From a virus (lineage: Duplodnaviria; Caudoviricetes), in the IMG/VR virus record IMGVR_UViG_3300032290_001086: 64,000 nt of DNA. The stretch is one strand, 5' to 3'. The position numbers were made by a program, and so were the translations under genes. Positions 2,172 to 64,000 of the stretch are shown here, piece after piece. The notes under the pieces are model-generated. The model made no database searches and had not been told where the DNA came from. It saw only the letters and a list, made by a program, of their open reading frames with translations. Within the stretch, counting starts at the first letter, position 1. Every line of letters begins with the position of its first letter.

Positions 2172-3640
2172 TGGCAGACGTTATTATCCAGAAAAAGAAC
2201 GAAACATATTTAACCGTAGAATGTGAACCACATATTAAATATGAGTTATCTGAATACTTCACATTTGATGTTCCAAATGCAAAATTTATGCCCCAATTTA
2301 AAAACAGATTGTGGGATGGAAAAATAAAACTATTCAGTCCAATGGATGGATCAATCTATTGTGGACTTTATAGTTATCTTACAGAGTGGCTATGTAGTAG
2401 GGGATATACATATCTCGATAAAGAAAATAAATTTTATGGAATGCCATCTGAGTCTTCTCATGATATAACTCCAGAAGGTCTTGTTGATTATGTAAAAACT
2501 TTAAATATTCCATTTAAAGTTAGAGACTATCAATACAAAGCAATATATCAAGCATTAAAAGATCAAAGAAAATTATTGCTTTCTCCTACTGCTTCTGGAA
2601 AATCTTTGATGATATATTCTATCGTTAGATATTACACAGATAAAAATTATAGAACTTTAATTATAGTTCCCACCACATCTCTTGTAGAACAATTAACTAA
2701 AGATTTTACTGAGTATGGTTGGAATTCAGATCATTATTGTCATAAAATTTATGCTGGAAAATTAAAGCAATCTACTAAACCAGTTACAATAACAACCTGG
2801 CAATCAATATATAAAATGCCAAAAACTTGGTATGAAACTTATGATGTTGTTATTGGAGATGAAGCTCATCAATTCAAAGCTAAGTCTTTAATTGGTATTA
2901 TGACAAAGTTGCACAACTGTAAGCATAGAATTGGATTCACTGGAACCCTAGATGGGACGAACGTAAACCAGCTAGTTTTGGAGGGATTATTTGGTCCAGT
3001 GAATAAAGTCATCAAAACTAAAAAATTAATTGAAAAAGGATACCTTTCTAATTTAAAGATAAACATACTTTTATTGCAACATGGGTATTCGTCATTTGAG
3101 TCGTATCAAGAGGAAATAGACTATATTTGTCGTCATGAAAGACGAAACAAATATATTAAAAATCTTGCTACAAATCAGAATGGAAATACTTTGGTATTAT
3201 TTTCCATGGTAGAAAAGCATGGTAGAGTGCTGTACGATTTAATAAATAGTGAAGTAGGTTCCACTAGAAAAGTATTCTTTGTATATGGTGGTGTTGATAC
3301 AGAAGAAAGAGAATTGATTCGCTCTTTAACAGAAAAAGAAACTGATGCCATCATTATTGCTTCTTACGGTACATTTTCCACTGGGATTAACATAAAAAAT
3401 TTACACAATGTTATTTTTGCTTCTCCTTCCAAATCAAGAATTAGAAATTTACAATCTATAGGTAGAGTTCTAAGAAAGGGTGAAAATAAATCAAAAGCTA
3501 AATTGTTTGATATTGCTGATGATTTTTCAAAAGGAGAAAAGAGAAATTATACATTAAATCATTTAATTGAACGAATTAAAACCTATTCACAGGAAAACTT
3601 TGAATATGAAATAATTCCCATAAACTTTAGTAAAGAATAA
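2171..3640 (+). CDS. uvsW: SF2 RNA-DNA helicase UvsW (ATG at 2171 preferred)
   Basis: SPTASGKS, DEAH, TGT and QSIGRVLR helicase motifs. Confidence 0.95.
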   Translation: MADVIIQKKNETYLTVECEPHIKYELSEYFTFDVPNAKFMPQFKNRLWDGKIKLFSPMDGSIYCGLYSYLTEWLCSRGYTYLDKENKFYGMPSESSHDITPEGLVDYVKTLNIPFKVRDYQYKAIYQALKDQRKLLLSPTASGKSLMIYSIVRYYTDKNYRTLIIVPTTSLVEQLTKDFTEYGWNSDHYCHKIYAGKLKQSTKPVTITTWQSIYKMPKTWYETYDVVIGDEAHQFKAKSLIGIMTKLHNCKHRIGFTGTLDGTNVNQLVLEGLFGPVNKVIKTKKLIEKGYLSNLKINILLLQHGYSSFESYQEEIDYICRHERRNKYIKNLATNQNGNTLVLFSMVEKHGRVLYDLINSEVGSTRKVFFVYGGVDTEERELIRSLTEKETDAIIIASYGTFSTGINIKNLHNVIFASPSKSRIRNLQSIGRVLRKGENKSKAKLFDIADDFSKGEKRNYTLNHLIERIKTYSQENFEYEIIPINFSKE

Positions 3641-3643
3641 ACT

Positions 3644-4042
3644 ATGGATGATTTTTACGGAATTTTAAAATTAGTAGACGGAACAGAACTAGTAGGTAAT
3701 GTACTTCCTTGCGAAGATAAGGATGGTTTCATTATTGAAAATCCATTTGAAGTTCTGGTAGAAAATGTAATGACTCCTTCAGGGGAAATGTATAAGGTTG
3801 ATTTACGAGCCTGGATTAAATTTTCAAAAGAAGATATATTTTTTATTGAAAAACAAAAAGTATTTACCGTTGCAGAAGCAGATGAGAAAATCCTAAGACT
3901 TTATAGAAGCACTCTAAAAAAGTATCTAAACCAATCAGATAACAATAGAGTTTCTTTAGATAAAGAATTAGGATTTAAAAATAAAATTAATGAAGCAAGA
4001 GAACTATTGGAGAAGTCCTTTAAACTTAATATAGATATTTAA
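3644..4042 (+). CDS. Conserved hypothetical protein (Sm-like fold candidate)
   Basis: ORF with ILKLVDGTELVG N-terminus between uvsW and gp55. Confidence 0.7.
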   Translation: MDDFYGILKLVDGTELVGNVLPCEDKDGFIIENPFEVLVENVMTPSGEMYKVDLRAWIKFSKEDIFFIEKQKVFTVAEADEKILRLYRSTLKKYLNQSDNNRVSLDKELGFKNKINEARELLEKSFKLNIDI

Positions 4043-4049
4043 GTAATAT

Positions 4050-4097
4050 TCTGACCCTTAACAGAGTCATTATACACAAATCCAGAGGTCTTGTCAA
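4050..4097 (-). promoter_or_regulatory. Perfect sigma70 promoter on minus strand followed by conserved 18-mer (candidate origin)
   Basis: TTGACA(4097-4092)-17 nt-TATAAT(4074-4069), then ACTCTGTTAAGGGTCAGA. Confidence 0.75.
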
Positions 4098-4162
4098 GGG
4101 GGTATTGCAAATCCTTGACAAGTGTGTTAAACTACTAACAGTTGAATAGAAGTTTATTTTGA

Positions 4163-4639
4163 ATGAAGAAAAAAGAACACTACGTAAATAACAAAGATTT
4201 TTTAGATGCTTTAGTTGTTTATAGAAATGAAGTAAAAAAATCAGTAGAAGAAGGAAGGAACAAGCCAAAAGTTCCAAACTATGTTGGAGAGTGTTTTCTT
4301 AAGATTGCAACCCACCTTTCGTATCGTCCTAACTTTGTGAACTATATGTTCAAAGATGATATGATTTGTGATGGTATTGAAAATTGTCTTCAATATATTG
4401 ACAACTTTGACCCAGAAAAATCTACTAACCCCTTTGCATATTTTACTCAAATTATTTACTTTGCATTTCTAAGAAGAATTCAAAAAGAAAAGAAACAGCT
4501 TGAAATCAAATCTAAACTATTAGAACGTTCTGGATTTGATGAAGTATTTGCTGCAGATGACTCTATTATGGGATTTAATATGTCTGATATGAACAGCATC
4601 AAAGAAAACTTAGAATATCGTAATTACAACAACCGATGA
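4163..4639 (+). CDS. gp55: Late-transcription sigma factor
   Basis: HYVNNKDF, RPNFVNY, NPFAYFTQIIYFAFLRRIQKEK. Confidence 0.96.
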   Translation: MKKKEHYVNNKDFLDALVVYRNEVKKSVEEGRNKPKVPNYVGECFLKIATHLSYRPNFVNYMFKDDMICDGIENCLQYIDNFDPEKSTNPFAYFTQIIYFAFLRRIQKEKKQLEIKSKLLERSGFDEVFAADDSIMGFNMSDMNSIKENLEYRNYNNR

Positions 4640-5688
4640 ACGCAGCTATTATTACAGACCAACATTTGGATGGAAGAAAAGGGTCTCAAGCTTTTTGGGA
4701 CTTTTTCATGAAATTCTATAATGAAATATTTTTTCCTACACTTGAAAAAAACAATATAAAAATTTTGTTTGATTTAGGAGATACTTTTGATAACAGAAAA
4801 AATATAGATTTTGCTGCTTGGTCTAGAATTAAAACTCAATATTATGATAGATTGCAAGAACTAGGTGTTCAAGTTCATATGATTGTTGGTAATCATACTG
4901 CATATTATAAGAACACTAATAGAATTAATACTCCAAGTTTATTATTAAATTCTTATGATAATATCACAATATACGATGAAATTTGTGATATTGATATTCT
5001 AGGTAATACCATTACAATGATTCCTTGGATTAATTCCGAAAATCAATCTAAAGTTATGTCTCATCTACAAAATACTAAATCTCAAGTATTGATGGGACAT
5101 TTAGAAATTACTGGATTTGAAGCACACCCAGGACATGTTTTTGAAGGTGGATTAGATAGAAGTATTTTCTCTAAATTTCCTCAAGTTTTTTCTGGTCACT
5201 TTCACCACAAATCAAGAGCAGAAAACATCTATTATCTAGGAAATCCTTATGAAATTACTTGGAGTGATTATAATGAAGAAAGAGGATTTCATTTGTATGA
5301 TTTAGATACTAGGAAATTAAAATTTATAAGAAACACATTTAGAATGTTTAAAAAGTTCTACTATGATGATAATAAAACTGATTATCTTTACGTAGACTTA
5401 ACTGAATACAAAGATTCTTATGTTAAAGTAATTGTAGAAAATAAATCAGACTCTTACATGTTTGATAAAGTAGTTGAAAAATTTTATTCTGTTGGCGTAC
5501 ATGATTTAAAAATAATTGAAGACAATTCAATGTTTAATTCTGATAGTGACGACACAGAAAGTATCGAGCATGAAGATACACTAACTACACTACAAAGATA
5601 CATAGAAGAAATGAAAGATAATTATGACAAGTCAAACTTGAAATCAATTATCAAATCAATATACATAGAAGCATGTGAAATACAATAA
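4636..5688 (+). CDS. gp47: Mre11/SbcD-like recombination nuclease
   Basis: DQH, DLGD, GNH and SGHFH phosphoesterase motifs. Confidence 0.95.
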   Translation: MNAAIITDQHLDGRKGSQAFWDFFMKFYNEIFFPTLEKNNIKILFDLGDTFDNRKNIDFAAWSRIKTQYYDRLQELGVQVHMIVGNHTAYYKNTNRINTPSLLLNSYDNITIYDEICDIDILGNTITMIPWINSENQSKVMSHLQNTKSQVLMGHLEITGFEAHPGHVFEGGLDRSIFSKFPQVFSGHFHHKSRAENIYYLGNPYEITWSDYNEERGFHLYDLDTRKLKFIRNTFRMFKKFYYDDNKTDYLYVDLTEYKDSYVKVIVENKSDSYMFDKVVEKFYSVGVHDLKIIEDNSMFNSDSDDTESIEHEDTLTTLQRYIEEMKDNYDKSNLKSIIKSIYIEACEIQ

Positions 5689-5963
5689 TGTACATTCTAA
5701 CACTCAAAGGAAGAAAACATGAAGGTGCATATGCAGTAGAAACTTCTGATGGATGTAAAGTTCTTCAGCTTTTTGTTGACTGCGATGATGCATTTCGTTA
5801 TATTGGGCTGTTGGAAGCAGATGGATTTCCAGAAATGGAATCTTTAGAAATAGAAGAAGAAGATGCTATTGCAGCATGTGAGAATTTCGGCTATAATTAC
5901 TGTGTTATTACCCCTGAAGATTTCGTAATTCCTCCAGAGACTGTTAGTTATGATTTTATTTAA
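5688..5963 (+). CDS. Conserved cyanophage hypothetical protein
   Basis: Coupled ORF between gp47 and gp46, ending ITPEDFVIPP. Confidence 0.75.
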   Translation: MYILTLKGRKHEGAYAVETSDGCKVLQLFVDCDDAFRYIGLLEADGFPEMESLEIEEEDAIAACENFGYNYCVITPEDFVIPPETVSYDFI

Positions 5964-7665
5964 AAATGTTACTTATTCCAACTTTCTTGCAGTAGGTAAT
6001 GTTCCAATATCAATAGATTTAAATTCAAATTCTACTACGTTGATAGTAGGTTCTAATGGAGCAGGTAAAAGTACAATTATAGAAGCTATAATTTTTGCTC
6101 TGTTTAATAAATCATTTAGAAAAGTAAATAAAAACCAATTAATTAATTCAATCAATGAAAAAGATTGTAAGGTAGAACTTGATTTTGTAATTGGTTCTAA
6201 AGAATATAAAATTATTCGTGGTCTTAAACCAAATATTTTTGAAATCTATATTGATGGAAAACCACTAGACCAACTTGCTGCAAATTCTGACCAACAAAAA
6301 TATCTTGAGCAAAATATTTTGAAATTGAATTACAAATCATTTACTCAGATTGTAATTCTTGGTTCTAGTACTTTTGTTCCATTCATGCAACTTCCTGCAG
6401 CACATCGCAGAGAAATCATTGAAGACCTTTTAGACATTCGTATTTTTTCAACGATGAATGTTATTCTAAAAGATAGAATTAAAACAAACAATGATAGCAT
6501 AAAGTCATACGATAATGAGATTGAATTCTTGAAAGAGAAAGTCAAAATGCAAAAGAATCATATTGATTATATTTCAAGTCAATCTCAAAAAAGTATTGAG
6601 GATAAAAAAACTCAAATTCAAGATTACGAAAATCAAATTGAAGACTGTGAGAAAGAATATGATAAAATTTGCACAGATTTGAGAAATAAAAATCAAGAAT
6701 TGGCAGACCTTCCTAAAATTAATATAAAAGATTTAGAAAAATATAAAACTAAGTTTCTAACTAAGTTGTCTGATTATGAAAATAATATAAATTTTTATAG
6801 TCAGAATGATACTTGTCCTACATGTCAACAAGAACTAACTACAGAAATTAAAACTAAACACATTAGTAAGTGCAACACTCAAATTGATAAATTGCAAAAA
6901 TCTATTGAAGAGGTAGAAACTAAGATAGAAGAATCTCAAAATATAATTAATAAATCTGAAAAAATTCTATCTGAGATTAATGAATTTACTGTTCAAATGG
7001 CATCCCAAAATTATAAATGTAAAGGTCTTTCAAAATTTATTGATTCGTTGAAAGATGAAATTGATAAAATATCAGAATCAGATAAGGACATTGCAATAGA
7101 AAAACAAAAATTAACTTCTCTTGCTTCTGAGGGATTGACACTCCAGAAAAAATTAGATAAGATGAAACATAATAAAAATCATTATGAAGTGGTTTCTAGT
7201 TTGTTAAAAGATACTGGGATTAAATCTAAAATTATTAAAAAATATCTTCCAGTAATGAATCAATTGATTAATAAGTATCTTCAATTAATGGATTTTTATG
7301 TCAACTTTAATCTTGATGAAAATTTTGAAGAGACTATAAAATCTAGGTTTAGAGATGATTTTAGTTACTCTTCTTTCTCTGAGGGAGAAAAAATGAGAAT
7401 TGATTTAGCTTTAATGTTTACTTGGAGAGCAATTGCAAAATTAAAAAATTCTGCAAACACTAATCTTCTTATTTTGGATGAAGTATTTGATAGTTCTCTT
7501 GATGGGGCAGGCACAGAAGATTTTCTGAGAATTATTCGTGGTGGAATTGATGAAGATACTAATATCTTTGTAATATCACATAAAGGAGATTTATTGCATG
7601 ATAAATTTGATAGAATCCTAAAATTTGAAAAAGTTAAAAACTTTAGTAAAGTAAAGGACATATAA
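5950..7665 (+). CDS. gp46: Rad50/SbcC-like recombination ATPase
   Basis: GSNGAGKS, CPTC zinc hook, FSEGEK, LILDE. Confidence 0.96.
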   Translation: MILFKNVTYSNFLAVGNVPISIDLNSNSTTLIVGSNGAGKSTIIEAIIFALFNKSFRKVNKNQLINSINEKDCKVELDFVIGSKEYKIIRGLKPNIFEIYIDGKPLDQLAANSDQQKYLEQNILKLNYKSFTQIVILGSSTFVPFMQLPAAHRREIIEDLLDIRIFSTMNVILKDRIKTNNDSIKSYDNEIEFLKEKVKMQKNHIDYISSQSQKSIEDKKTQIQDYENQIEDCEKEYDKICTDLRNKNQELADLPKINIKDLEKYKTKFLTKLSDYENNINFYSQNDTCPTCQQELTTEIKTKHISKCNTQIDKLQKSIEEVETKIEESQNIINKSEKILSEINEFTVQMASQNYKCKGLSKFIDSLKDEIDKISESDKDIAIEKQKLTSLASEGLTLQKKLDKMKHNKNHYEVVSSLLKDTGIKSKIIKKYLPVMNQLINKYLQLMDFYVNFNLDENFEETIKSRFRDDFSYSSFSEGEKMRIDLALMFTWRAIAKLKNSANTNLLILDEVFDSSLDGAGTEDFLRIIRGGIDEDTNIFVISHKGDLLHDKFDRILKFEKVKNFSKVKDI

Positions 7666-7687
7666 GTAATCCTTATGGACCAACCCA

Positions 7688-7716
7688 TTGACTTGGTGGG
7701 TTGGTCTTGGTATTAT
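7688..7716 (+). promoter_or_regulatory. sigma70-type early promoter
   Basis: TTGACT-17-TATTAT, with the -35 inside a GACCAACCCA/TGGGTTGGTC hairpin. Confidence 0.65.
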
Positions 7717-7739
7717 ATGGAGAACGAATTGAGGCTCTT

Positions 7740-9905
7740 ATGTCCGACATCCAACAGTCCAAAAGCATTCTTGCAAAACTTCTGGCAACTGAAAACCTAA
7801 CAGTAGAACATCGTTCGGTTTCAACCGCAAGTTTTGATACTCATAATCGTATTCTGACTCTTCCTATCTGGGACAAAACATCTAATGATGTATATGACCT
7901 TCTTGTTGGTCATGAAGTTGGTCATGCTCTCTATACTCCAGATTTGTATGGAAGCGACCTAAATCTTCCTCAGAGTTATCTGAATATTGTTGAGGATGCT
8001 CGTATTGAGAAGCTGATGAAACGAAAGTATCCTGGTCTTGCTCGTGCATTTTATCGTGGATATTCAGAACTGAATGACAAAGATTTCTTTGAGATTGATT
8101 CTATTGATATCAATACTTTAAAATTTATTGATAAAGTAAATCTATATTTTAAACTTGGCAATGTAAATAGTGGAGTATTTATTAATTTTACATCAGAAGA
8201 ACAAGTATTTGTAAACAAAATTGCTAAAGCAGAAACTTTTGAGGATGTAGTAGCTATTGTCAAAGAACTTGTTGAGCATACTGAGCAAGAAATGGAACTG
8301 CAAATTCAAATATCTCATGGAGATTCTGGAGAATCTGATGAAGAGAATGAGCAAATGGATTCCCAATCAATTGATTCTTCTGATAGTCAAGTAACTGAAA
8401 ATCAGAGTCAAAATTCTCCCGACAGTAGTTCTGATAAGAAAGAAGATTCTTCTTCTTCTGATAATGTTCAATCTTCATCTAACAATTCTGGAAAAGAAGC
8501 AGATTTTAATTCCAAGACAGATGATGCTTGGTCTAAAAATCAGAAGCAGCTTGCTTCAATGAATACAAATAATTATATTTATTTGTCACCTCCAGAAATT
8601 AATGTAGATACCCATATCATTAATTGGAGGGAGTTTGCCGAAGACCTTCCAAATATTTTTAAAGAGATTATTTCCAGTGCTTCGTATGGGTATAATGGAA
8701 AGGAGTATTATCGTAAAATGTTTAATACCGCAGATAGTTCTTATAAAAAATACAAAGAAGAGTGCAAGAAATCAGTCTCATATCTAATTAAAGAATTTGA
8801 GATGAAAAAGAAAGCAACTGAATATAATCGTTCAGCTACTGCTGCAACTGGTATTCTTGATACCAATAAGATGTATTCATACAAATGGAATGATGACATT
8901 TTCAAAAAAGTTACTGTAGTTCCTAAAGGTAAATCTCATGGACTTCTCATGCATGTAGATTGGTCTGGGTCTATGCAAGGAAATCTTGTTGGCACCATCA
9001 AGCAACTATTCAACCTAATTCAATTTTGTAAGAAAGTTCAAATTCCTTTTGAAGTTTATTCTTTTAACGACAAAAATGTAGCAAAAAATTATGCTCAAAT
9101 TTCTAGGAGCAAAAAGTTAAAGATTCAAGATAACCAGATTTATATTAGTGATGATTTTCTTCTGGTGAATTTGTTCAGCAGTAAAATGAATAGTGCTCAA
9201 CTAGAAAAGCAAATGCAATATGTTTGGAAACTTGCATATGCACTAGACCATCGAGTTTATTTAACTCATCAGTATTCTCATTATGATTTGGGAAGCACTC
9301 CTCTGAATGAATCTGTATTTGCTTCTATTCCTCTGTTTCATAAATTCAAATCTACTTATAAGGTAGACAAAGTAAATACAGTATTTCTTACTGATGGAGA
9401 ATCTAATTCAGTTTCTTACAATCGACCATCACATTCAGGTGCATCCAGGAATATTGTCCATGCTGGATGGAATTCTGCAAATGATATTCTTTGTTTTCAG
9501 GATAGAAAGAATAAAATTACAATGATGGATATTAATAAGAATGGAAGTATTGGAGTTACATCTTGTTTTGTAGATTATTATCGCCAGGTAACTGGTTCAA
9601 ATGTAGTTGGATTTAGGTTGATTGAATTTTATCAGGCAAAAACTTTCTTGACTCGTTATTTGAAACCTGAGTACTCTTCTTGGAGTGATGTATCAACTGA
9701 ATGGTTAAAGACAAAATCATTTACTTCAACCTCACTAGGGTATAACGAACTATATTTTATTCAAATTGATGATGGCATTTCTACTCAAACTGAAGAAACA
9801 GAACCTGCTCCTGTCACTAATGTTGCGGTAGCATTTAAAAAGCAAATGGGTAGGAAAGCGTTCAATAAAATCATCTTATCTAAATTCATCGAGCAAATCG
9901 CTTGA
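7740..9905 (+). CDS. CobT-like protein: HExxH peptidase-like domain, acidic linker and VWA domain
   Basis: HEVGH, NIVEDARIE, MIDAS DWSGS, FLTDGE; adjacent to a MoxR ATPase; ATG at 7740. Confidence 0.85.
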   Translation: MSDIQQSKSILAKLLATENLTVEHRSVSTASFDTHNRILTLPIWDKTSNDVYDLLVGHEVGHALYTPDLYGSDLNLPQSYLNIVEDARIEKLMKRKYPGLARAFYRGYSELNDKDFFEIDSIDINTLKFIDKVNLYFKLGNVNSGVFINFTSEEQVFVNKIAKAETFEDVVAIVKELVEHTEQEMELQIQISHGDSGESDEENEQMDSQSIDSSDSQVTENQSQNSPDSSSDKKEDSSSSDNVQSSSNNSGKEADFNSKTDDAWSKNQKQLASMNTNNYIYLSPPEINVDTHIINWREFAEDLPNIFKEIISSASYGYNGKEYYRKMFNTADSSYKKYKEECKKSVSYLIKEFEMKKKATEYNRSATAATGILDTNKMYSYKWNDDIFKKVTVVPKGKSHGLLMHVDWSGSMQGNLVGTIKQLFNLIQFCKKVQIPFEVYSFNDKNVAKNYAQISRSKKLKIQDNQIYISDDFLLVNLFSSKMNSAQLEKQMQYVWKLAYALDHRVYLTHQYSHYDLGSTPLNESVFASIPLFHKFKSTYKVDKVNTVFLTDGESNSVSYNRPSHSGASRNIVHAGWNSANDILCFQDRKNKITMMDINKNGSIGVTSCFVDYYRQVTGSNVVGFRLIEFYQAKTFLTRYLKPEYSSWSDVSTEWLKTKSFTSTSLGYNELYFIQIDDGISTQTEETEPAPVTNVAVAFKKQMGRKAFNKIILSKFIEQIA

Positions 9906-9958
9906 CTTCCACCCCTCTTTCCCCTATACTACTTTCATACCAAACGAGGTACTTAATT

Positions 9959-11062
9959 ATGACTGACCAACTGATTGAAAATCTTTCCGCTCTTTACGGT
10001 GAAACTGTTACTCGTCAACAACTAATTGAATATGCTGCAAATTCAAATACTTCTCTTGCAGTAATTTGCAAAACTCTAGAGCCAAATAAAACTGGTCGTG
10101 GAGTTTGGAATTTGACTGTAGCCGAAAAACTTGAAATTAATTTTAATACTATGACTGCATCTCCTGCATCTCCTGCAATCAGCTTCGTCCCCCAAAAAGA
10201 CAAGAATTACGTCTCGTTTGGTAACTTCAGTGATGTAAAGCGAATTGTTAAGTCTGGGATGTTCTATCCTGTTTTTATTACTGGTTTGTCTGGTAATGGT
10301 AAAACCGTAAGTGTCGAGCAGGCTTGTGCTCATCTGAAGCGTGAACTTATTCGTGTCAATATCACTATTGAAACCGATGAGGATGACCTTTTGGGTGGCT
10401 TTCGACTTGTTGATGGAGAAACTGTATGGCATGATGGTCCAGTAGTAAATGCACTGAAGCGTGGTGCTGTTCTGCTGCTTGACGAGATTGACCTTGCTTC
10501 CAACAAGATTATGTGTCTACAGTCTGTCTTGGAAGGTAAAGGTGTTTTCCTCAAGAAAATCAATCAGTACGTAACTCCTACTTCTGGATTCAATGTAATT
10601 GCTACTGCTAACACCAAAGGTAAGGGTTCTGATGATGGTCGCTTCATCGGCACCAACGTGATGAACGAAGCTTTCCTTGAGCGTTTCCCCATTACTTTTG
10701 AGCAACCATATCCTTCGATGGCAACTGAGAAAAAGATTCTCATGAATCTAATGAATACCTTTGAGGTTATCGACGAGGAGTTTGTAGACAAGCTAATTGT
10801 CTGGGCAGATACTATTCGTAAGACCTTCTATGATGGGGGTGTAGATGAAATCATTACCACTCGCCGTCTTGTTCACATCATTCAATCATTTGCGATTTTC
10901 AAGAACCGCAAGAAAGCTATCAATGTTTGTATCAATCGTTTTGATGATGATACCAAGAGTTCTTTCCTAGACCTCTACAAGAATATTGATGCTTCTGCTC
11001 TAGACACCAATGAGGAAAGTGTGGTAGAAACTAATGAAGAAACACTTGACAGTTCTATCTGA
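9959..11062 (+). CDS. cobS: CobS/MoxR-like AAA+ ATPase
   Basis: GLSGNGKT, LLLDEID, ATANTKG, AFLERF; ATG at 9959 behind TTGACT-17-TATACT. Confidence 0.9.
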   Translation: MTDQLIENLSALYGETVTRQQLIEYAANSNTSLAVICKTLEPNKTGRGVWNLTVAEKLEINFNTMTASPASPAISFVPQKDKNYVSFGNFSDVKRIVKSGMFYPVFITGLSGNGKTVSVEQACAHLKRELIRVNITIETDEDDLLGGFRLVDGETVWHDGPVVNALKRGAVLLLDEIDLASNKIMCLQSVLEGKGVFLKKINQYVTPTSGFNVIATANTKGKGSDDGRFIGTNVMNEAFLERFPITFEQPYPSMATEKKILMNLMNTFEVIDEEFVDKLIVWADTIRKTFYDGGVDEIITTRRLVHIIQSFAIFKNRKKAINVCINRFDDDTKSSFLDLYKNIDASALDTNEESVVETNEETLDSSI

Positions 11063-11122
11063 TTGATGTATACTAAGGGGAGTTCTTCTCCCCATTTTTT
11101 TATTTTATTGGAGATTTTAATT

Positions 11123-11437
11123 ATGCAATGGAAGTACAATGAAGAAAAAATTCTTAAAGATATTGAGGATTATGTCGTAAGTACTTATGGGAGTCATTAT
11201 TGTGGTCATGATGATGACTATCGTGATGTTCAGACTATTGACCTAATGGCAGCAAAGGGATTAGCACAAGATTTCTGTCAGGCTAATATTTTAAAATATG
11301 GAAGCCGTTATGGGGATAAAGACGGTCATAACAAGCGAGACCTAATGAAAGTGATTCATTATGCTATGCTCCTACTTCACTTCGATAAACACTATTCACG
11401 AACAAACAACGGTCTTCAGGAGTTCAAATCAGTATGA
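11123..11437 (+). CDS. Conserved hypothetical protein (DUF3310-like)
   Basis: SHY...FCQANILKY.SRYG.KDG..DL.K..HY pattern; ATG at 11123. Confidence 0.75.
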   Translation: MQWKYNEEKILKDIEDYVVSTYGSHYCGHDDDYRDVQTIDLMAAKGLAQDFCQANILKYGSRYGDKDGHNKRDLMKVIHYAMLLLHFDKHYSRTNNGLQEFKSV

Positions 11438-12099: not shown

Positions 12100-12104
12100 T
12101 TTTT

Positions 12105-55154: not shown

Positions 55155-55172
55155 ATTAATTAGTAAAACAAT

Positions 55173-55197
55173 GGGGGGCGTAAGCCCCCCTTTTTTT
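55173..55197 (+). terminator. Terminator between gp32 and convergent gp53
   Basis: GGGGGGC-GTAA-GCCCCCC followed by T7. Confidence 0.9.
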
Positions 55198-55879: not shown

Positions 55880-55880
55880 T

Positions 55881-56873
55881 TTAGTATCCTCCCTCTCCTG
55901 TTCCGAACTCTGTTACCTCTACACCAGTAATAATTTCTGTTTCTTTGAAGTCTAATGTCAAGTTATATGCAACTGGTGCTGGTCCTAATTTGTTTGAATA
56001 ATGTGTAGCCCATACTCCATCTGGAGTGTAATCAATACTTACATTTGTAAGCACACAGGGTTTAATTTTGGGTAAACTTTTAATATCATTATTGTTATTA
56101 TTGTATACCCAATTCAAGTTAAAGATTCTTGGTACAGATAACCATCTGTCACTAAGTTCATTAAATGAGTTTCCTTCTTCTCCTTCAAATGCAGAAGTTC
56201 CACTATAATTAGGGAGTGCATGATATCTTAATGCTTTAATAATATTATCAATTTTAATTTGCTCGGATTCACTTCTAGGAACTAATTTCCAGGTGAAGTT
56301 AAAGTTTCTCATGCTTACTCCGCCGAAAATTTGTTCCTTATATGGATTTAAAACTTTTCCAGCGATACCTTGAGTCAATGCTTCACCACTAATACCAATA
56401 CTTTTTTCACTTAATTGTTTTAATAACATTCCAGCAAGACCATTTTGTGCCAAGGTCTGTAAGTTTGTTCCAATTGCATCCGTATTAGAATCGGTAAATC
56501 CTTTTGCAATAGAAGGTAAAATCTTTCCAATAGCTCCAATACTTTGCTCTCCCCAATCCATTGAATCTGAGTAATTTACTTTTTCTGGAATTGGTAGTAG
56601 AATCGTAGCTAAAGATTTTTTTGCTTTTGCTCCAGAAGACAATTGAACATTACTTAGTGTTCCTTTGTAAGAGGAGGATGTCCCTGGAGTGGAACTGCTA
56701 GATTCGGATGCAGCCATTCCTCCCAATCCAGATTGTGTGATTGGAGTGAAGTCTACAATATCAATCTTTAATAGGTCATACTTAGCAACAGTATCTGGCC
56801 AATATAAGTTTTTGAACTGTTGACCTCCTTGACCTTCTGCAGGTGGGGCGTAACTTTTTGAACCAGTACTCAT
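55881..56873 (-). CDS. gp48: Baseplate tail tube cap
   Basis: NPY.EQIF.G...R.F.FTWKL.PRS..E; L.FKETE. Confidence 0.85.
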   Translation of the reverse strand: MSTGSKSYAPPAEGQGGQQFKNLYWPDTVAKYDLLKIDIVDFTPITQSGLGGMAASESSSSTPGTSSSYKGTLSNVQLSSGAKAKKSLATILLPIPEKVNYSDSMDWGEQSIGAIGKILPSIAKGFTDSNTDAIGTNLQTLAQNGLAGMLLKQLSEKSIGISGEALTQGIAGKVLNPYKEQIFGGVSMRNFNFTWKLVPRSESEQIKIDNIIKALRYHALPNYSGTSAFEGEEGNSFNELSDRWLSVPRIFNLNWVYNNNNNDIKSLPKIKPCVLTNVSIDYTPDGVWATHYSNKLGPAPVAYNLTLDFKETEIITGVEVTEFGTGEGGY

Positions 56874-56909
56874 AAATAGTAGGTATAGATTGACATTTAT
56901 AAACTATTT

Positions 56910-57347
56910 ATGAGTACTTTAAAGGGAAAATTTTCTCCTAGAAATATTCATAAGTACAGAGGTGATTATAGAAATATAATTTACAGATCTTCATGGGAAC
57001 TTAAATTCATGAAGTATTGCGATGAAAGAGCTACTGTACTTGAGTGGGGAAGTGAAGAAATAGTAATTCCTTATAGATCTCCTTTAGATAATAGAATTCA
57101 CAGATATTTTGTCGATTTTTATGTGAAAATAAAAGATTCAAATAATAACATTACAAAATATTTAATTGAGATTAAGCCAAAAAAACAAACAGTAGAACCA
57201 AAGATTTCAAACAGAAAAACAAAAAGTTACATTTATGAAGTAACTGAATACGTAAAAAATCAAGCAAAGTGGTCTGCGGCTGAGGATTTTTGTCGAGATA
57301 GAAATTGGAAGTTTATGATACTCACCGAAAAGGAATTAAAGGTATGA
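56910..57347 (+). CDS. gp4: Head completion nuclease
   Basis: YRSSWE, W.SEE, YFVDF, EIKP, NQAKW. Confidence 0.92.
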   Translation: MSTLKGKFSPRNIHKYRGDYRNIIYRSSWELKFMKYCDERATVLEWGSEEIVIPYRSPLDNRIHRYFVDFYVKIKDSNNNITKYLIEIKPKKQTVEPKISNRKTKSYIYEVTEYVKNQAKWSAAEDFCRDRNWKFMILTEKELKV

Positions 57348-57946
57348 CATCATCTTTCAGAAATATGGTTCCACGATCTCCTTCCAATATAAGAGGAGGA
57401 GATAATATAAGTACTGGATTTGGTACTCCAGATCTTAGTGGTAATATTTTTTCAGACGTTAAAAAATTAGCCAGAGGAAGAGAAAGAAGCTATTCTTGGT
57501 ATCGTGATACAATAAGGATGGTTTCTAAGAAAAGTGATATTTACAAAACCTTATCTACTTGTAATGAAACTCTATCTCCAGTTGGAAGTAAATTATATTT
57601 TTTTGAATATAATGCAACCTGGGCAAAAAAATTAAAGTATTATGATGAGTTTCCTTTAGTATACATGCTCCAGGGGGGACCAAAATTTTTTGGAGCTAAT
57701 TTACATTATCTTACATATGCAAGAAGAGTTCAAGTAATAGAAAGTATTTTGAATGGAACACCAACAATTCCTAAACAGTGCTTTCATAATTATGTTTATG
57801 AAGGTCTTGAAACACCATTATTTGAAATAAATACTGATGATTGGAAAACCGCAATCTTCATACCAAATGAAAGTTTTGTTACAAGGAGAAGAGGATTGTA
57901 TCAACGAGTAAGTAAGTCTTTTGTTTGGGGAGATAGTAGCCAATGA
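57344..57946 (+). CDS. gp2: DNA end protector
   Basis: YYDEFPLV...GANLHYL. Confidence 0.85.
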   Translation: MTSSFRNMVPRSPSNIRGGDNISTGFGTPDLSGNIFSDVKKLARGRERSYSWYRDTIRMVSKKSDIYKTLSTCNETLSPVGSKLYFFEYNATWAKKLKYYDEFPLVYMLQGGPKFFGANLHYLTYARRVQVIESILNGTPTIPKQCFHNYVYEGLETPLFEINTDDWKTAIFIPNESFVTRRRGLYQRVSKSFVWGDSSQ

Positions 57947-58785
57947 CAACTAGAGCTTTTGATAGAAATATTGGAACTCTTAAAGAGTTCAAGTCTTATG
58001 TATCTAAATTTGGATACAGTATTAATAACTTTTATGATGTTCATTTTGACTTAACCAATTCCACTGGAGTTTTAAATAATATACTCAAAAGAGTTCCTGG
58101 GGGTGGTCAGCCAAATGCCAATGATCCATCCAACATGACTGGATTGATGAGATTCTATGCAGAAGAATGTTCTATTCCAGGATTTCAAATTTCCACAGGA
58201 GAATATCGTATTAATAATTCTCCCCAATTAAAATATGCATATGGAATTGTAAATAATGAAATTACATTTTCATTTATTGGGGATGCAAATTCAGAGATTA
58301 GAAAAACTTTTGATGCATGGCAAAGTTATATCTATGCACACAATGTTCCAAATTCACGACAAGCTACATCAGGAGTTTTAAATGTAAATCGCAAGCAAAA
58401 TTTAGGCAGAACTAGATATAGAGATGAATATGTTACTGATATTTTAGTTGTCAAGTTTGAAAAAGCTAATCAATTTGAGGTTACTAGTAAAGGTAATACT
58501 ATATTAAGTGATTTAGAAAGATCTGGAACATATATGAAATCTACTGACATAATTCCAGATTATAAACCAAAATCTTTACAGGAGAATATAAGTAATTTTG
58601 AAAAAGCAAAACCATTATATTCTGTACGATTAATGAATGCATTCCCTACAAATATTTCTTCAATCGGACTTTCTAGTGGTGCTTCAGAAATTGTAAAAGT
58701 GCAAGTTACATTTGAATATGAGACTGCAGTTACAAGTGCCCATAATAATGGAACCGTACAAGGAAGCATAGAAACAATTATCTAA
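57943..58785 (+). CDS. Tail tube initiator / tube-like baseplate protein (gp54/gp19-like)
   Basis: C.IPG, F..WQ..I, NAFP.NI, V.FEYE tube-fold motifs. Confidence 0.7.
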   Translation: MTTRAFDRNIGTLKEFKSYVSKFGYSINNFYDVHFDLTNSTGVLNNILKRVPGGGQPNANDPSNMTGLMRFYAEECSIPGFQISTGEYRINNSPQLKYAYGIVNNEITFSFIGDANSEIRKTFDAWQSYIYAHNVPNSRQATSGVLNVNRKQNLGRTRYRDEYVTDILVVKFEKANQFEVTSKGNTILSDLERSGTYMKSTDIIPDYKPKSLQENISNFEKAKPLYSVRLMNAFPTNISSIGLSSGASEIVKVQVTFEYETAVTSAHNNGTVQGSIETII

Positions 58786-58827
58786 AAGTAACCTAAATAA
58801 TTTCAAATTATGTTATAGTTTTATACT

Positions 58828-59538
58828 ATGCCTTTACCAAAATTAGTTGCCCCAACATATGAGTTGGAACTTCCTTCAACTGGAGATACAATTAAATATA
58901 GACCATTTCTAGTAAAAGAAGAAAAAATTCTTCTTCTTGCTATGGAATCTGAAGATGAAAAACAAATGACCAATGCAGTGAAAACTATTTTAAAGAACTG
59001 CATTTCTTCAAAAATTAAAGTAGATGATTTAGCAACATTTGATATCGAGTATCTATTTTTAAATATTCGTGCAAAGTCTGTTGGAGAAGAAATTGAATTA
59101 AATGTTCCATGTCCAGATGATAATCAAACTGTGGTTCCAGTTAAAATTAATGTAGAAGATATTAAGGTACAAAAATCAAAAGATCATAATAGAATTATTG
59201 AATTGAATGATTCGGTGTCTGTAGTCATGAAATATCCTAGTATGGAAACTTTTGTGAAGACTAATCTTTCTTCTAATGGAACTGCAGAAGATGTATTTGA
59301 AATTGCTGCATCTTGTATTGAGCAGGTTGTAGAAGGTGAAGATGTATATGAAACCAAGAGTTTCTCTAAAAAAGAAATTAATGATTTCCTTGATAGCTTA
59401 GACACGGCACAGTTCTTAAAAATTCAACAGTTTTTTGAAACTATGCCAAAACTTTCTCACACTATTAAAGTGACAAATCCAAATACTGATGTTACAAGTG
59501 ATGTAGTAATTGAAGGTCTAGCAAGTTTTTTCGCATAG
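58828..59538 (+). CDS. gp26: Baseplate hub assembly protein
   Basis: MPLPK...YRPFLVKEEK...FDIEYLFL.IRAKSVGE...EGLASFF. Confidence 0.92.
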   Translation: MPLPKLVAPTYELELPSTGDTIKYRPFLVKEEKILLLAMESEDEKQMTNAVKTILKNCISSKIKVDDLATFDIEYLFLNIRAKSVGEEIELNVPCPDDNQTVVPVKINVEDIKVQKSKDHNRIIELNDSVSVVMKYPSMETFVKTNLSSNGTAEDVFEIAASCIEQVVEGEDVYETKSFSKKEINDFLDSLDTAQFLKIQQFFETMPKLSHTIKVTNPNTDVTSDVVIEGLASFFA

Positions 59539-59720
59539 CCCTAGCTCATGAAACCTTAGAAAATTATTTTAGAATTAATTTTATATTGATACAACATCAT
59601 AAGTGGAATCTAAGTGAGCTAGAATTAATGATACCATGGGAACGAGAAGTTTATGTTCAAATGTTAATTGATTATATTGAAGACGAAAATAACAGACAAA
59701 AAACAACGCAGTCATTATAA
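59526..59720 (+). CDS. gp51: Baseplate hub assembly catalyst, start-less, in the -1 frame of gp26
   Basis: HETLENYFRINF.LIQHHKWNLSELELMIPWEREVY; no ATG before the conserved block. Confidence 0.8.
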   Translation, partial: FFRIALAHETLENYFRINFILIQHHKWNLSELELMIPWEREVYVQMLIDYIEDENNRQKTTQSL

Positions 59721-59723
59721 TAG

Positions 59724-62700
59724 ATGGCACAACTCAAACCTTCAATGAAATCATTTGGCCAAGCATTAACTGGTCAAAAATTAAAATCCTCTTATATTAA
59801 TCAATCAGCTTTTACTTCAAGTACTGCTGTAATGAGTGCTCCTGGAATGTCAACACCAGGAGCATTTTCTGCTGCAGAGTTAGGTGAATTATCTTCCATT
59901 AAAAAGAATTTAGTTTCGTTGGTTGCCATCGAAAAAAAGTATAATGATTTTCTTGGTGATAAAATTATAAAATTTGCAAGATCAGAAGAAAGAACAAAAC
60001 TTAAAAAGAGAGAATCTTCACAAGAAACCAAAGATAAAACAGAAAAGAAAGCAAAAGTTAATCCTGTTGTAAAAGGAGCCATGAAAGGTCTTGACGGACT
60101 TGTTGGCTTTTTTGGAGATTTATTTAAATGGTTTATTGGATATAAAATTGTAGAGTGGGTATCAAAACCAGAAAATTTAAAAAAGATTCAAGACTTTGCT
60201 AAATTATTTGTAGGAATATTTAAATTTATTAGCAACGTTGTAGGATTTGGCGTTGACAAAATAATGTCAGGTCTTAGCCATTTAGTTGATGGTGGTGGAA
60301 TTACAAGAGTATTTGGCGCTCTTGAAATGATCGTTGGATTCTTCACTTTAAAGTGGTTATTGAATCCGACCAAAATAATTTCTGATATTAAAATGATCGG
60401 GACATTATTTACAAAAATAATTCCGAACGCAATTAATGGAGTATTAAATTTCTTTACTAATTTAATACCTTCAGTTGCAACACAAGCTGTAGATACTGCA
60501 GTAAACGAAGGGTTGAAAGGAGCAGCTGCTGCAGGAACAGAAGCTGTTAAAACCGCTGCAGGACAGGTCACAGAGCAGGCAGCAAAGTCTGGAGGCAAAG
60601 CAGCAGCAGAGGGTGCTGCTAAGGGTGCTGCAAAAGGAGCAGGAGCAGTCGCAGCAAAAGGTGCCGCAAAGGGAGCAGCCAAGGGTGCAGGTAAGTCGTT
60701 ACTGAAAAAACTTCCTGTTATAGGAGCAGTCACAGGAGGAATCTTTGCAGTAGATAGAGCATCTAAAGGTGATTGGGTTGGAGCTGGGATGGAGGCTGCA
60801 TCTGGTGTAGCTTCTTTGTTACCTGGATGGGGAACTGCAGCATCAATAGGTATTGACGCAGCATTGGTAGCAAGAGATCTTGCCAAGGAAAAGGAAAAAG
60901 AAGATAAAAAAATTCCAAAATTAGCAAAAGGTGGTATTGTAACTAAACCTACTAAAGCAATAGTAGGAGAAGCTGGACCAGAAGCAATTCTTCCTTTAGA
61001 TAAATTAACTTCATTTACAGGAAAAGGTATTGAATCAGATGTAGGAAAAATAATTCCTAAATTTATGAAGATGTTGACGATTCCTTTCACTTTAGTTGGT
61101 GCTGGAATTATTGCATTAATGTCATCTTCATTAGCAGTAATTCCTGGCATCGGACCATTGATGCTGCCATTGATTTCTAGTATTGCTTCCACTTTTGGCA
61201 TTCCTCCTTCTATAGTTAAAGGAGTATCCAAGTTTGTAAAAAATCCAATAGAAGCAGTAAAGGGAGGAGCTAGTAATATATCTAAATTGTTTGGGGATAC
61301 TTCTCCTAGAGTATCAAAACAAAAGGGAGGAAAATTTACCCCATCAAACGATACTTCAGTTAGAGGATTGCTTGCTAATATTTTGGGAGCATTGGCAAGT
61401 AAAAATTCAGATCAACCAGTACCAAGTACACCTTCACCTTCTGGTGGATCTCCTTCTGGTGGATCTCCTTCTGGTACTGGTGGTTCAAGTCCTCCTCCAG
61501 GAGCAGGTACAGCAACTGCCACGGACAATGCAAAAGAATCAATAAAAAAGGCTGGTGGATTGCGAGAGGATGGAACTCTGAAAGGAGTTCAAGGTACTTT
61601 TATAGACAAGGGTAGGGGAGGAAAAGAATATTCTCCTGGAGGTGGTCTAAAAGCAGTAATTAATGGAAACCGAAAGTATTGGTATGATGCTACTGGAAAT
61701 GTATTTAAATGGGAAAAACCAGGAGATCCTTTAACAGATATTACATCAACTAAATTATTTGATTCAAAAACTTTAGGAGGTCCATTAGTAAGAATTCCTA
61801 GCACAGGAGAAGTTAAAATTCTAAAAGGATTGTTTGGTGGAGATCAAACTGCAGTTGGAATGTATAATTATGCAGTAGGTAAAGTATTAAAATCTAGACC
61901 TACGAAAGGACCCAAAGGAACATCTGGTTCGGATGTTTGGGAAGCTCCAACTGAAGGAATTTATGGAAAACCTGCAAAATTTAATAGTGGTGGTAGAGTA
62001 AAGGGCTCTGGTATTGGAGATAAACAGCCTGCATTACTTGAACCAGAAGAGTATGTATTGAATAAAAATTTAGTTAAAGCTATGGGTGGACCGAAGGTTT
62101 TAGATCCTTTAAATTTCAATCTTCATCCTAGATTTGGTACATCTAAAATTGCACAGATTCAAAGAAATGAAGAAAAAGCAAGTGGTGATGGAAGACCAAG
62201 AACAAGAATGCTTCAAATTGGAGGAGCAGCAATATTAGAAGGTGCGAAAAAAATAGCTGGAATGGGAAAGGGACAAGGTAATATGTGTGCCGCAACCACC
62301 AGAGCTGCATTAAGAGCTGCTGGACATCCTGATGCAGGAAAGGTTACTCAGAAAGGGGATTTAGACGCAGAAGGAACAAAATACAATGGAGTTAATTTTG
62401 CTGCATCTTTTGCAGGAAGTGATATGGGATCTATTATTAAAAATACTTCAGGATTGCAGGCTGGTGATGTTGTGTTGTGGAAAGGAGGAAATGGTTATCC
62501 TTCTGGGGCTATTACTCACGTTGGTATTAAAGGAGAAGGAAATGATCTTTGGCATCATGGCAGATCAGCTGGATTTAGAAAAGCTAGTATGTACACTAGT
62601 TCTGGAGGACAGACATTTGCAGCAGGAGTAAGATTAGGAGGAACTGGTACTGTAGGTGGTGGTCCTGGATCTACTTCAGAAACCCAAGAATCTGAAGTTT

Positions 62701-63035
62701 CTTGGGCAGATATTACTAAGAGTTTAGGAAGTTTATATAAAGGTTTAACTGGAACTCCTTCTCAAACAATTCCTCCTGCTCCTACGTTACCTCTTGCTCC
62801 TGCTCCAACCACATCTATTCCTTCATCATCTACTAGATTACAACAAGCACAACAAACTTCAAATCAAAATAAAGCAACACAACAAGCTTCTACAACAAAA
62901 CCATCTGGAGGTAATGTAGTCAGTCTTTCTCAAGGAACTAATGTAATCAATCAAACTCAGGTTGAAACTTTAGCTCCAGCTCTTGGAAATACTATTCCTC
63001 CCACACCTTTAACTGTATTCCCTGCAACTCCATAA
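59724..63035 (+). CDS. Tape-measure-like tail protein with C-terminal NlpC/P60-CHAP-like domain
   Basis: Amphipathic repeats, GEAGPEAI, LEPEEYV, CAATT...GDVVLW...HVGI. Confidence 0.75.
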   Translation: MAQLKPSMKSFGQALTGQKLKSSYINQSAFTSSTAVMSAPGMSTPGAFSAAELGELSSIKKNLVSLVAIEKKYNDFLGDKIIKFARSEERTKLKKRESSQETKDKTEKKAKVNPVVKGAMKGLDGLVGFFGDLFKWFIGYKIVEWVSKPENLKKIQDFAKLFVGIFKFISNVVGFGVDKIMSGLSHLVDGGGITRVFGALEMIVGFFTLKWLLNPTKIISDIKMIGTLFTKIIPNAINGVLNFFTNLIPSVATQAVDTAVNEGLKGAAAAGTEAVKTAAGQVTEQAAKSGGKAAAEGAAKGAAKGAGAVAAKGAAKGAAKGAGKSLLKKLPVIGAVTGGIFAVDRASKGDWVGAGMEAASGVASLLPGWGTAASIGIDAALVARDLAKEKEKEDKKIPKLAKGGIVTKPTKAIVGEAGPEAILPLDKLTSFTGKGIESDVGKIIPKFMKMLTIPFTLVGAGIIALMSSSLAVIPGIGPLMLPLISSIASTFGIPPSIVKGVSKFVKNPIEAVKGGASNISKLFGDTSPRVSKQKGGKFTPSNDTSVRGLLANILGALASKNSDQPVPSTPSPSGGSPSGGSPSGTGGSSPPPGAGTATATDNAKESIKKAGGLREDGTLKGVQGTFIDKGRGGKEYSPGGGLKAVINGNRKYWYDATGNVFKWEKPGDPLTDITSTKLFDSKTLGGPLVRIPSTGEVKILKGLFGGDQTAVGMYNYAVGKVLKSRPTKGPKGTSGSDVWEAPTEGIYGKPAKFNSGGRVKGSGIGDKQPALLEPEEYVLNKNLVKAMGGPKVLDPLNFNLHPRFGTSKIAQIQRNEEKASGDGRPRTRMLQIGGAAILEGAKKIAGMGKGQGNMCAATTRAALRAAGHPDAGKVTQKGDLDAEGTKYNGVNFAASFAGSDMGSIIKNTSGLQAGDVVLWKGGNGYPSGAITHVGIKGEGNDLWHHGRSAGFRKASMYTSSGGQTFAAGVRLGGTGTVGGGPGSTSETQESEVSWADITKSLGSLYKGLTGTPSQTIPPAPTLPLAPAPTTSIPSSSTRLQQAQQTSNQNKATQQASTTKPSGGNVVSLSQGTNVINQTQVETLAPALGNTIPPTPLTVFPATP
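61434..61474 (+). repeat. 15-nt tandem repeat encoding a PSGGS linker
   Basis: CCTTCTGGTGGATCT repeated about 2.6 times. Confidence 0.75.
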
Positions 63036-63036
63036 G

Positions 63037-64000
63037 ATGGCTATTTCTTCACCAATAAAACCATCTCCATTTTTAGTACCTGCAAGGCTTAAAGAACTTA
63101 AAGCCATAAATGTTTTGTCTAAAAAATTATATGAACATAAAAGAGATAGATTTTTGTTAGAGAAACGTTTATATAAACTTGAGCAAAAATCTCTAGAGAA
63201 AAGACAACTACAAGAAAGAGAGTCTTCTCAAGAATCTAAGAAAAAATTATCTTTAAAATCATCTGCTAAAAGATTTGTAAGGAATAAAGCAGTTGGATTA
63301 GGATCATTTTTATTTGATTTATTACAATTTTTTATTACGTATAAAGTAGTAGAATGGGTATCGAAACCAGAGAATAAGAAAAAAGTTTTAGCTATTACTA
63401 AAGCATTAAAGGGAATTTTTGATTTCCTTAGCTGGTTTGTGACTGGAACTATAGACAATGCATTTAGTGGATTGCATAGTGTTTTATTTGGAGAAACTTT
63501 ATTAGAAAGATTTTTAGGATTTTTTAAATTAGTAGTAGGTCTTCTTGGATTTAGATACTTACTGCGTCCTGGAAAACTGTTTAAAGATTTAGGATTTGTT
63601 ATAAAAAATAGTGGTAAAATATTAGATGTATTTACCTCTTTTAGAAAAGCTGGAATAAAAGAAGGGTCTGAAAAATTATTACAAACTCTTCCAAAAACTG
63701 CAGAAGTTTTCAAAAGAGGATTAACCAGAGGAATTACAAGAGGACTACTAAAGGTATTTGGAAAAGGTGGAGTTAGATTATTATCAAAAATATTTGGACC
63801 TGCTTTTAGAGCAGTAAAAAATATCATACTGGGTCCAATTAAAACTTTTGCAAAAACAACTGTAAAGGGTATTCCTATTGTAGGACCTTTATTAGATCTC
63901 GGAATTAATTTAGCTTTAGGAGATCCAATAGATAAGGCCATTGTAAAGGCTGCAGGTTCTGCATTAGGAATGGGTCTTGGTGGATTGATAGGATCCGCAT
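63037..64000 (+). CDS. Second tape-measure-like protein, 3'-truncated
   Basis: ATG 63037, open to the window end; YKVVEWVSKPEN matches the previous gene. Confidence 0.8.
   Translation, partial: MAISSPIKPSPFLVPARLKELKAINVLSKKLYEHKRDRFLLEKRLYKLEQKSLEKRQLQERESSQESKKKLSLKSSAKRFVRNKAVGLGSFLFDLLQFFITYKVVEWVSKPENKKKVLAITKALKGIFDFLSWFVTGTIDNAFSGLHSVLFGETLLERFLGFFKLVVGLLGFRYLLRPGKLFKDLGFVIKNSGKILDVFTSFRKAGIKEGSEKLLQTLPKTAEVFKRGLTRGITRGLLKVFGKGGVRLLSKIFGPAFRAVKNIILGPIKTFAKTTVKGIPIVGPLLDLGINLALGDPIDKAIVKAAGSALGMGLGGLIGSA

Follow-up and report, generated by a model that had tools for sequence, protein, structure and literature searches.

Why would a four-letter word be nearly absent from most of a phage genome and occur at ordinary density in a few of its blocks? 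The question is raised by the IMG/VR virus record IMGVR_UViG_3300032290_001086, of which a stretch of 64,000 nucleotides (hereafter the window) was analysed. Annotation with PHROGs, Pfam and ARAGORN assigns this segment to a T4-like cyanomyovirus of freshwater metagenome origin, and the word in question is GATC. A first reading made from the letters alone (the sequence-only reading) had proposed that GATC is segregated by expression class, and that something at GATC in the incoming genome penalises genes transcribed before replication while sparing those transcribed from new DNA. We favour, with moderate confidence, another explanation, namely lineage-specific, restriction-type elimination of GATC within a recombination mosaic. 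The mechanism of the sequence-only reading is not supported, and a mosaic combined with restriction avoidance fits the data better than a rule based on expression timing.

The window contains 46 GATC sites, as compared to 231 ± 12 in dinucleotide-preserving shuffles and 206 by mononucleotide expectation. Four blocks (1.74–2.76, 22.3–25.5, 32.7–33.2 and 56.9–64 kb; 11.8 kb) hold 41 of these sites against ~40 expected, and the remaining 52.2 kb hold 5 against 163–169 expected. The clusters picked out by eye were accurately placed: 8 sites lie within 22,366–25,470, 3 within 32,770–33,150 and 5 in uvsY/uvsW (1,764–2,729), a single site stands at 42,062, and the roughly 25 sites claimed for 56.9–64 kb number exactly 25 (56,986–63,992). 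A codon-aware per-gene comparison was then made against promoter class, with classes drawn solely from promoter motifs and orthology and the expectation obtained by shuffling synonymous codons within each gene, which leaves protein sequence and codon usage unchanged. The 64 genes outside late-type units hold 3 GATC against 113 expected (P ~1e-44), in agreement with the claimed near-absence from early and middle genes; the 21 genes within late-type units hold 41 against 58 expected.

The elimination is legible in the choice of codons. Aspartate ahead of a C-initial codon is written GAC 89 times and GAT 6 times in the depleted zone, as the sequence-only reading had noticed, as compared to 189 GAC and 688 GAT in other contexts. 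Isoleucine after a G-ending codon uses ATC in 1 of 124 cases in this zone, and nrdA contains no GATC where 9.95 are expected. An amino-acid or codon-usage artefact was considered as the cause and is ruled out by the synonymous shuffling.

Comparison with a GATC-normal sister phage, G006 (IMGVR_UViG_3300020151_001495; 116 kb, 383 GATC against 376 expected), shows that GATC was removed in a targeted way. G006 and the window are collinear over the whole length of the latter, at ~82% identity. Only 1 of the 145 G006 sites aligned to the depleted zone is kept, and none of the 10 that lie where local identity is at least 90%; in their place the window carries GACC, AATC, GATT and similar words. In the four blocks, sites behave neutrally, with 17 common to both phages, 16 found only in G006 and 18 found only in the window. 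The same contrast in survival is seen against all GATC-normal relatives and includes the late gene gp23 (positions 861 and 888). Position 888 is GATC in every GATC-normal relative, which carry 2–5 sites in this gene, and GACC in both the window and the GATC-free relative G001. Between uvsW and mazG, all aligned G006 sites except the one at 14199 are one-letter variants in the window, and none of the 23 sites of G006 and L010 aligned to 47–55 kb is kept. The surviving site at 14199 lies in a 16-mer, ATGAACGATCCGTTCC, of which the GATC-free relative L011 has an identical copy, and it is the only GATC common to both; a single GATC is evidently tolerated where the sequence is constrained.

A survey of ~340 related loci from IMG/VR places the window among relatives that fall into two classes, with observed-to-expected GATC ratios of either 0.00–0.1 or 0.9–1.8. 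The closest long relative, G001 (gp43 86% identical, 105 kb), has 0 GATC against 337 expected; G002, which overlaps G001 (63 kb), has 0 against 202, and the 39.6-kb contig G005 has 0 against 134. On the other side stand G006, the complete 172-kb genome G008 (587 against 579) and the GenBank phage S-CREM1 (933 against 635). The scaffold, sheath, terminase, neck and baseplate-wedge genes of G001 all lack GATC, as do the G002 homologues of the gp4–gp26 block, so that avoidance in this sister lineage is genome-wide and includes every late gene. In the lineages under selection, synonymous changes of a single letter have purged GATC, leaving none at all in the closest long relatives. Avoidance extends genome-wide in G001, G002 and G005 and does not do so in the window, with its four blocks at expected density. 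None of the 80 uvsW-centred loci mixes a GATC-free with a GATC-normal side, and all GATC-free loci among them with enough flank lack GATC in both head and early genes; loci centred on gp32 and gp26 come almost exclusively from GATC-normal phages.

Taken with the codon signature, the two classes suggest that GATC is under restriction-type selection in some freshwater T4-like cyanophage lineages and not in others. The selective agent would most likely be a GATC-specific host restriction enzyme, either one that cuts unmethylated sites (MboI/DpnII type) or one that cuts methylated sites (DpnI type). The phage of the window belongs to a GATC-eliminating lineage; by recombination with co-occurring GATC-normal relatives it would have become a patchwork in which four blocks are of GATC-normal type and the rest of GATC-free type.

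How much of the pattern, then, belongs to expression class? As a description, segregation by class stands in part: each block of the window with more than one GATC belongs to the gp23 operon or to a unit headed by a late-type ATAAATA motif, and no early or middle gene has more than a single site. What does not stand is the claim that late genes are at neutral density. The late-type segments outside the four blocks hold 1 GATC against 13–17 expected (P 3e-5 to 1e-6). Judged against the GATC-normal relatives, the same segments (gp23, 33,381–34,408, 25,880–27,228, 39,789–40,667 and the 5' half of the gene at 32,221; Table 1) hold 0 against 17.4 in sum, two smaller segments included (P ~3e-8). The sequence-only reading had itself flagged gp23 and 25.9–27.2 kb as late regions apparently without GATC, and this caveat proves stronger than it was put. 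These segments speak against a penalty falling solely on genes transcribed before replication, as do G001 and G002, which lack GATC in all canonical late genes.

Other palindromes point the same way. Across the window CCGG occurs 1 time, CGCG 0 times and GCGC 4 times against 60 expected for each, and ATCGAT and TTCGAA occur 0 times against 22 each. Inside the GATC blocks the corresponding counts are 1 CCGG, 0 CGCG and 1 GCGC, against 10 expected for each. All five words are nearly eliminated from the blocks and the rest alike, and from relatives of both GATC classes (G001, G002, G006, L009–L011, L103–L106); they do not separate GATC-free from GATC-normal relatives, and the more distant G003 keeps CCGG and GGCC. 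Since these palindromes are unrelaxed in the blocks, being late does not in general free a gene from site avoidance, and since GATC is present there while CCGG, CGCG and GCGC are avoided, the blocks bear the signature of GATC-normal phages.

These counts also bear on the nature of the agent, which might instead be a phage-encoded GATC-specific nuclease directed against host or competitor DNA, or an early-acting GAUC-specific ribonuclease. Exact zeros over 105 kb and 63 kb make for an unusually absolute loss, and since the word is palindromic, the sequence by itself would also admit action on RNA. We nonetheless give this possibility little credence: no candidate gene was identified, the removal of other classical restriction palindromes across the whole group speaks for ordinary restriction pressure, and the depleted zone tolerates one conserved GATC. 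A search for Dam-type methyltransferases (PF02086, PF05869) found none in the freshwater relatives searched, in either GATC class. As a separate observation, three marine GATC-depleted T4-like cyanophage contigs (G010:C1:4524-5375, G011:C1:18387-19073 and G014:C1:123-875) each encode a D12-class (Dam-like) adenine methyltransferase. Such a gene within a GATC-poor genome is paradoxical, and the freshwater relatives show none. One of the marine GATC-poor contigs, L404 (G010), has 7 GATC in its first 0.72 kb (region 1–931) and 8 in its other 39 kb; this cluster, its only one, lies in a small open reading frame (ORF) and in an accessory gene, the foremost in a tandem array of five 2OG-Fe(II) oxygenase paralogues.

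The ancestry of individual blocks was read from local identity to the two classes of relatives. In block 2, identity to G006 reaches 91–98% over 22,988–24,188 and at 25,458, as compared to 72–86% in the flanks, and four of its sites (22366, 23200, 23282 and 25006) are common to G006. The protein of its 860-amino-acid (860-aa) ORF is 88% identical to the G006 copy and 59% identical to the G001/G002 copy. The uvsY part of block 1 (bases 1801–2100) is 91% identical to G006 and 83% identical to GATC-free relatives, two of its sites (1764 and 1806) are common to G006, and the GATC-free relatives L091 and L099 have 0 sites in this block. The block 3 protein is 88% identical to its closest phages, which are GATC-normal, and only 68% identical to the G006 copy; at 32770, where every GATC-normal relative has GATC as the window does, G002 has GACC. 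Block edges fall inside genes, in uvsW for block 1 and in the gene at 32,221 for block 3. The unit that starts from the late-type promoter at 32,183 has GATC only at 32,770–33,150, and its next 1.2 kb has 0 sites against 5–9 in GATC-normal phages. Judged by these alignments, blocks 1 and 2 are shown to be of recombinant ancestry, and block 3 shows incongruence.

Recent recombination blocks had been named by the sequence-only reading as a pattern that would speak against its own idea. The GATC pattern does follow such blocks at 22.8–24.2 kb and in uvsY, both high-identity tracts shared with a GATC-normal sister, and follows them only partly overall. Exchange does not appear to run in one direction only: the GATC density of G006 falls from 4.2/kb where it is below 82% identical to the window to 0.36/kb where it is at least 93% identical, which suggests that tracts flow from the GATC-free lineage into GATC-normal genomes too.

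A step in GATC density falls at the junction between gp32 and the baseplate block (block R1), and a contig that wrongly joined reads from a GATC-free and a GATC-normal strain could produce such a step. The source metagenome also contains related strains, which would make a chimera conceivable. In the probable source run (X1), however, a unitig covers 54,346–57,880 without a difference from the window, and a lake-water run of independent origin (X2, another study) yields a 6.7-kb contig that covers 51,083–57,789 with 35 differences (99.5% identity). Depth is even on both sides of the junction, at ~20x in X2 and ~47–50x in the source run, and the same step occurs in relatives from other samples. 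The junction is therefore real, and the chimera, for which we see next to no chance, was rejected on the strength of the independent contig. Contigs of co-occurring strains depart from the window sequence at 55,300–55,775, which marks the gp32/gp53 junction as an active natural breakpoint. We also note that the X2 strain differs from the window by 1.0–1.8% in 57.8–64 kb and by ~0.5% in 46.9–57.8 kb, and that 12 bases are absent from it at window position 60654, within the 1103-aa ORF of the baseplate region.

Several observations weigh against elimination within a mosaic as the full account. Late-type units account for ~1/3 of the window and yet contain all four multi-site blocks, an outcome with a chance of ~1/100 under random placement. 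The step at the gp32/baseplate junction recurs in three lineages, the window, L350 and L009/L351, which are 78–83% identical to one another. L350 (82% identical to the window) has 0 GATC in the 6 kb to the left of the junction and 26 in the 11 kb to its right, and L009/L351 is 78% identical to the window. In R1, GATC turns over like the control words (the other 23 orderings of the letters A, C, G and T), with shared fractions of 0.30–0.42 for GATC and 0.32–0.37 for the controls, while 20 kb of the depleted zone gained 1 new GATC along the window's own branch against ~15.5 neutral gains expected. The best tree of R1 places the GATC-normal sister inside the three-lineage group (support 89/97), and descent of R1 within the three lineages is not rejected (approximately unbiased test, AU p = 0.23). 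Genome-wide selection should have purged R1 unless the block was re-imported in each lineage, and no R1 donor closer than ~80% identity was found among the relatives examined. Either each lineage imported R1 anew, as would suit a host-range module that selection diversifies, or the block is exempt from the selection that acts elsewhere in the genome.

Exemption is the core of an alternative in which selection depends on block or time. Under this alternative, the lineages of the window, L350 and L009 would pay for GATC only in DNA that is needed early; in the baseplate module and some other late units a cut or block could be borne, or mended in time, so that GATC would drift neutrally there; and late genes that lack GATC would reflect recent descent from fully GATC-free phages. 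Selection on GATC would then have been long absent from the baseplate module and a few late units and strong elsewhere. The recurrence of the step at the same gp32 / gp53–gp48 / gp4 junction in lineages ~20% apart is in its favour, as are the neutral turnover to the right and exclusion to the left along the same branches, the confinement of multi-site blocks to late-type units, and the unrejected descent of R1. At equal identity to GATC-normal relatives (at least 88%), moreover, 4 of 5 sites survive in blocks and 1 of 17 elsewhere. Set against this are the late-type segments with 0 sites against 17.4, the loss of GATC from every late gene of the sister lineage, the unrelaxed state of other restriction-type palindromes in the same blocks, and the coincidence of blocks 1 and 2 with high-identity tracts from a GATC-normal phage. 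G003, a complete GATC-poor genome, retains 56 sites, which are scattered without a clear relation to class and show no excess in late genes, and the GATC patch of the marine GATC-poor contig lies in an accessory oxygenase gene. Among related GATC-avoiders, the step is seen at one junction in L350 and L009/L351 and is absent from G001, G002, G005, G003 and all GATC-free uvsW loci. We consider selection of this regional kind unlikely, though by no means negligible.

The turnover data bear equally on the idea that the pattern is a relic, left when the phage, having gained a new host-recognition module, recently moved to a host without restriction at GATC. GATC would now be neutral everywhere, and the depleted zone would simply not yet have regained its sites, although the single sites present may be new gains. 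Such a history agrees with the GATC-rich part being the baseplate and host-range module, and with DNA exchange with the GATC-normal sister at 91–98% identity, which implies shared hosts. The reverse recombinant, with GATC-rich early genes and a GATC-free baseplate, was seen 0 times in ~160 loci, as expected if restriction kills it. All but one of the gains predicted by the control words are nonetheless missing from the window's branch, the mosaic is older than the 0.5–1.8% divergence between the X1 and X2 strains, and the same exclusion is found in L350, L009 and L011. Because exclusion has persisted through ~8–10% divergence per lineage, a pure relic is unlikely, and we regard it as quite improbable.

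Restriction-type elimination within a mosaic thus remains our preferred reading, and it offers its own account of the late units. Variable virion and host-interaction modules are probably what gets exchanged and kept, so that the link to expression class would be a by-product of module exchange, and repeated import may be what keeps the baseplate block rich in GATC. The segments of the window are collected in Table 1.

Table 1. Segments of the window with their GATC sites and, for late-type segments, the mean count in GATC-normal relatives
Segment	Position	Strand	GATC in window	Mean in GATC-normal relatives	Remarks
gp23 (5' end cut by window edge) and tail-tube-family gene	3..1739	+	0	3.4 (gp23)	late; 4.6 expected (synonymous shuffle)
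GATC block 1: uvsY and 5' part of uvsW	1740..2760	+	1764, 1806, 2349, 2561, 2729		
GATC-free zone I: 3' part of uvsW through mazG, including peptidase-like gene	2761..22300	+	singles 14199, 15195 only		
Retained single GATC in conserved non-coding element	14199..14202	.			16-mer at 14193-14208
GATC block 2: end of cytidylyltransferase-like gene and 860-aa ORF	22366..25473	+	8		ORF after late-type motif
GATC-free zone II: late-type unit 25,880-27,228, gp61, nrdA, nrdB, 5' half of ORF at 32,221	25500..32700	+			
Late-type unit in zone II	25,880-27,228		0	1.9	
5' half of gene at 32,221			0	2.0	
GATC block 3: variable 3' half of 317-aa ORF	32770..33153	+	3		ORF follows TATAAATA motif
GATC-free zone III: RusA-like gene, lysin-like gene, tRNA island, psbA/endonuclease genes to gp32	33200..55190	+	singles 42062, 42940		
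Late-type segment	33,381-34,408		0	7.0 (range 5-9)	
Late-type segment	39,789-40,667		0	2.3	
Baseplate block R1: gp53, gp48 (minus), gp4, gp2, tube-like gene, gp26, 1103-aa ORF, next ORF	55196..64000	.	26		

R1 is of normal GATC density (25 sites against 22 expected from 56.9 kb on) and extends past the end of the window; the identity of its proteins to those of G002 drops to 38–56% in several genes. The gene order of the window begins with gp23, the tube-family gene, uvsY, uvsW, gp55, gp47, gp46 and cobS, followed by gp45/44/62, regA, hsp20, gp43, uvsX, gp41 and mazG. Next come the 860-aa ORF, gp61, nrdA/B, the tRNA island and psbA with endonuclease genes, then rnh, phoH, gp33, gp59 and gp32, and last gp53 and gp48 on the minus strand, gp4, gp2, gp26 and large ORFs of the baseplate region. 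Apart from the tube-family gene, every named gene in this order had been named correctly by the sequence-only reading, as judged by PHROGs. ARAGORN finds 11 tRNAs in the window, and Pfam gives no function for the 860-aa, 317-aa and 1103-aa ORFs. The psbA gene is apparently split, with a 288-aa piece at 44,009–44,875 and two HNH-type endonuclease ORFs nearby (region 43479–46062). The nearest GenBank phages, S-PM2 and S-CREM1, are only ~72–79% identical, and megablast found no close GenBank phage.

Earlier work on the avoidance of restriction sites in phage genomes is said to include that of Sharp in 1986. The pattern described here resembles such avoidance in that a palindrome is removed by synonymous changes, up to complete elimination, to an extent that varies between related phages, and in that several palindromes are affected at once (GATC, CCGG, CGCG, GCGC, ATCGAT and TTCGAA). 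According to Rusinov et al. (2018, PMC6286503), roughly one phage genome in ten shows near-complete elimination of sites, and all 46 phages with a matching enzyme encoded by the host avoid GATC. The present pattern is unlike the known cases in being regional rather than genome-wide in the phage of the window, and in that relatives at 80–97% identity differ in an all-or-none manner. Searches of the literature turned up no cyanophage for which GATC avoidance had been reported.

Module exchange and mosaic genomes are established for T4-like phages, cyanomyoviruses included. Like these, the window has tracts that are sharply closer to, or more distant from, one relative or another; its breakpoints fall both within genes and at the edges of modules, and its baseplate block is of another type than that of its closest relative in the replication module. 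Unlike described T4-like mosaics, it carries a four-letter word as a visible tag of tract ancestry, and the same hybrid layout appears in three diverged lineages.

The nearest precedent for regional avoidance is the first-step-transfer DNA of phage T5, which, as reportedly described by Davison and Brunel in 1979, is free of the EcoRI sites that occur elsewhere in the genome. There, avoidance is confined to DNA that acts before an anti-restriction function works, much as in the idea of the sequence-only reading. T5 injects a fixed end first, and its regional avoidance depends on this ordered entry, which the circularly permuted T4-like genomes lack. In contrast to T5, depletion here covers most of the genome and extends to several late genes, and sister lineages avoid GATC everywhere.

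What is new is that close cyanophage relatives are polymorphic for GATC in an all-or-none manner, that the word can be used to mark tracts, and that the hybrid layout recurs. GATC serves as a natural ancestry tag, with which recombination tracts between restriction-adapted and non-adapted lineages can be read from sequence, in both directions, and the sets of avoided words are possible fingerprints of host range. These phages may therefore offer a field system for the speed at which restriction pressure reshapes a genome, for how often host-range modules are swapped, and for whether swapped modules escape purging. Should the step in three lineages reflect real regional tolerance, restriction sites would not all be equally costly in a T4-like infection: the cost of a site in a circularly permuted T4-like genome would depend on where, or when, its DNA is needed, a T5-like regional immunity without ordered DNA entry.

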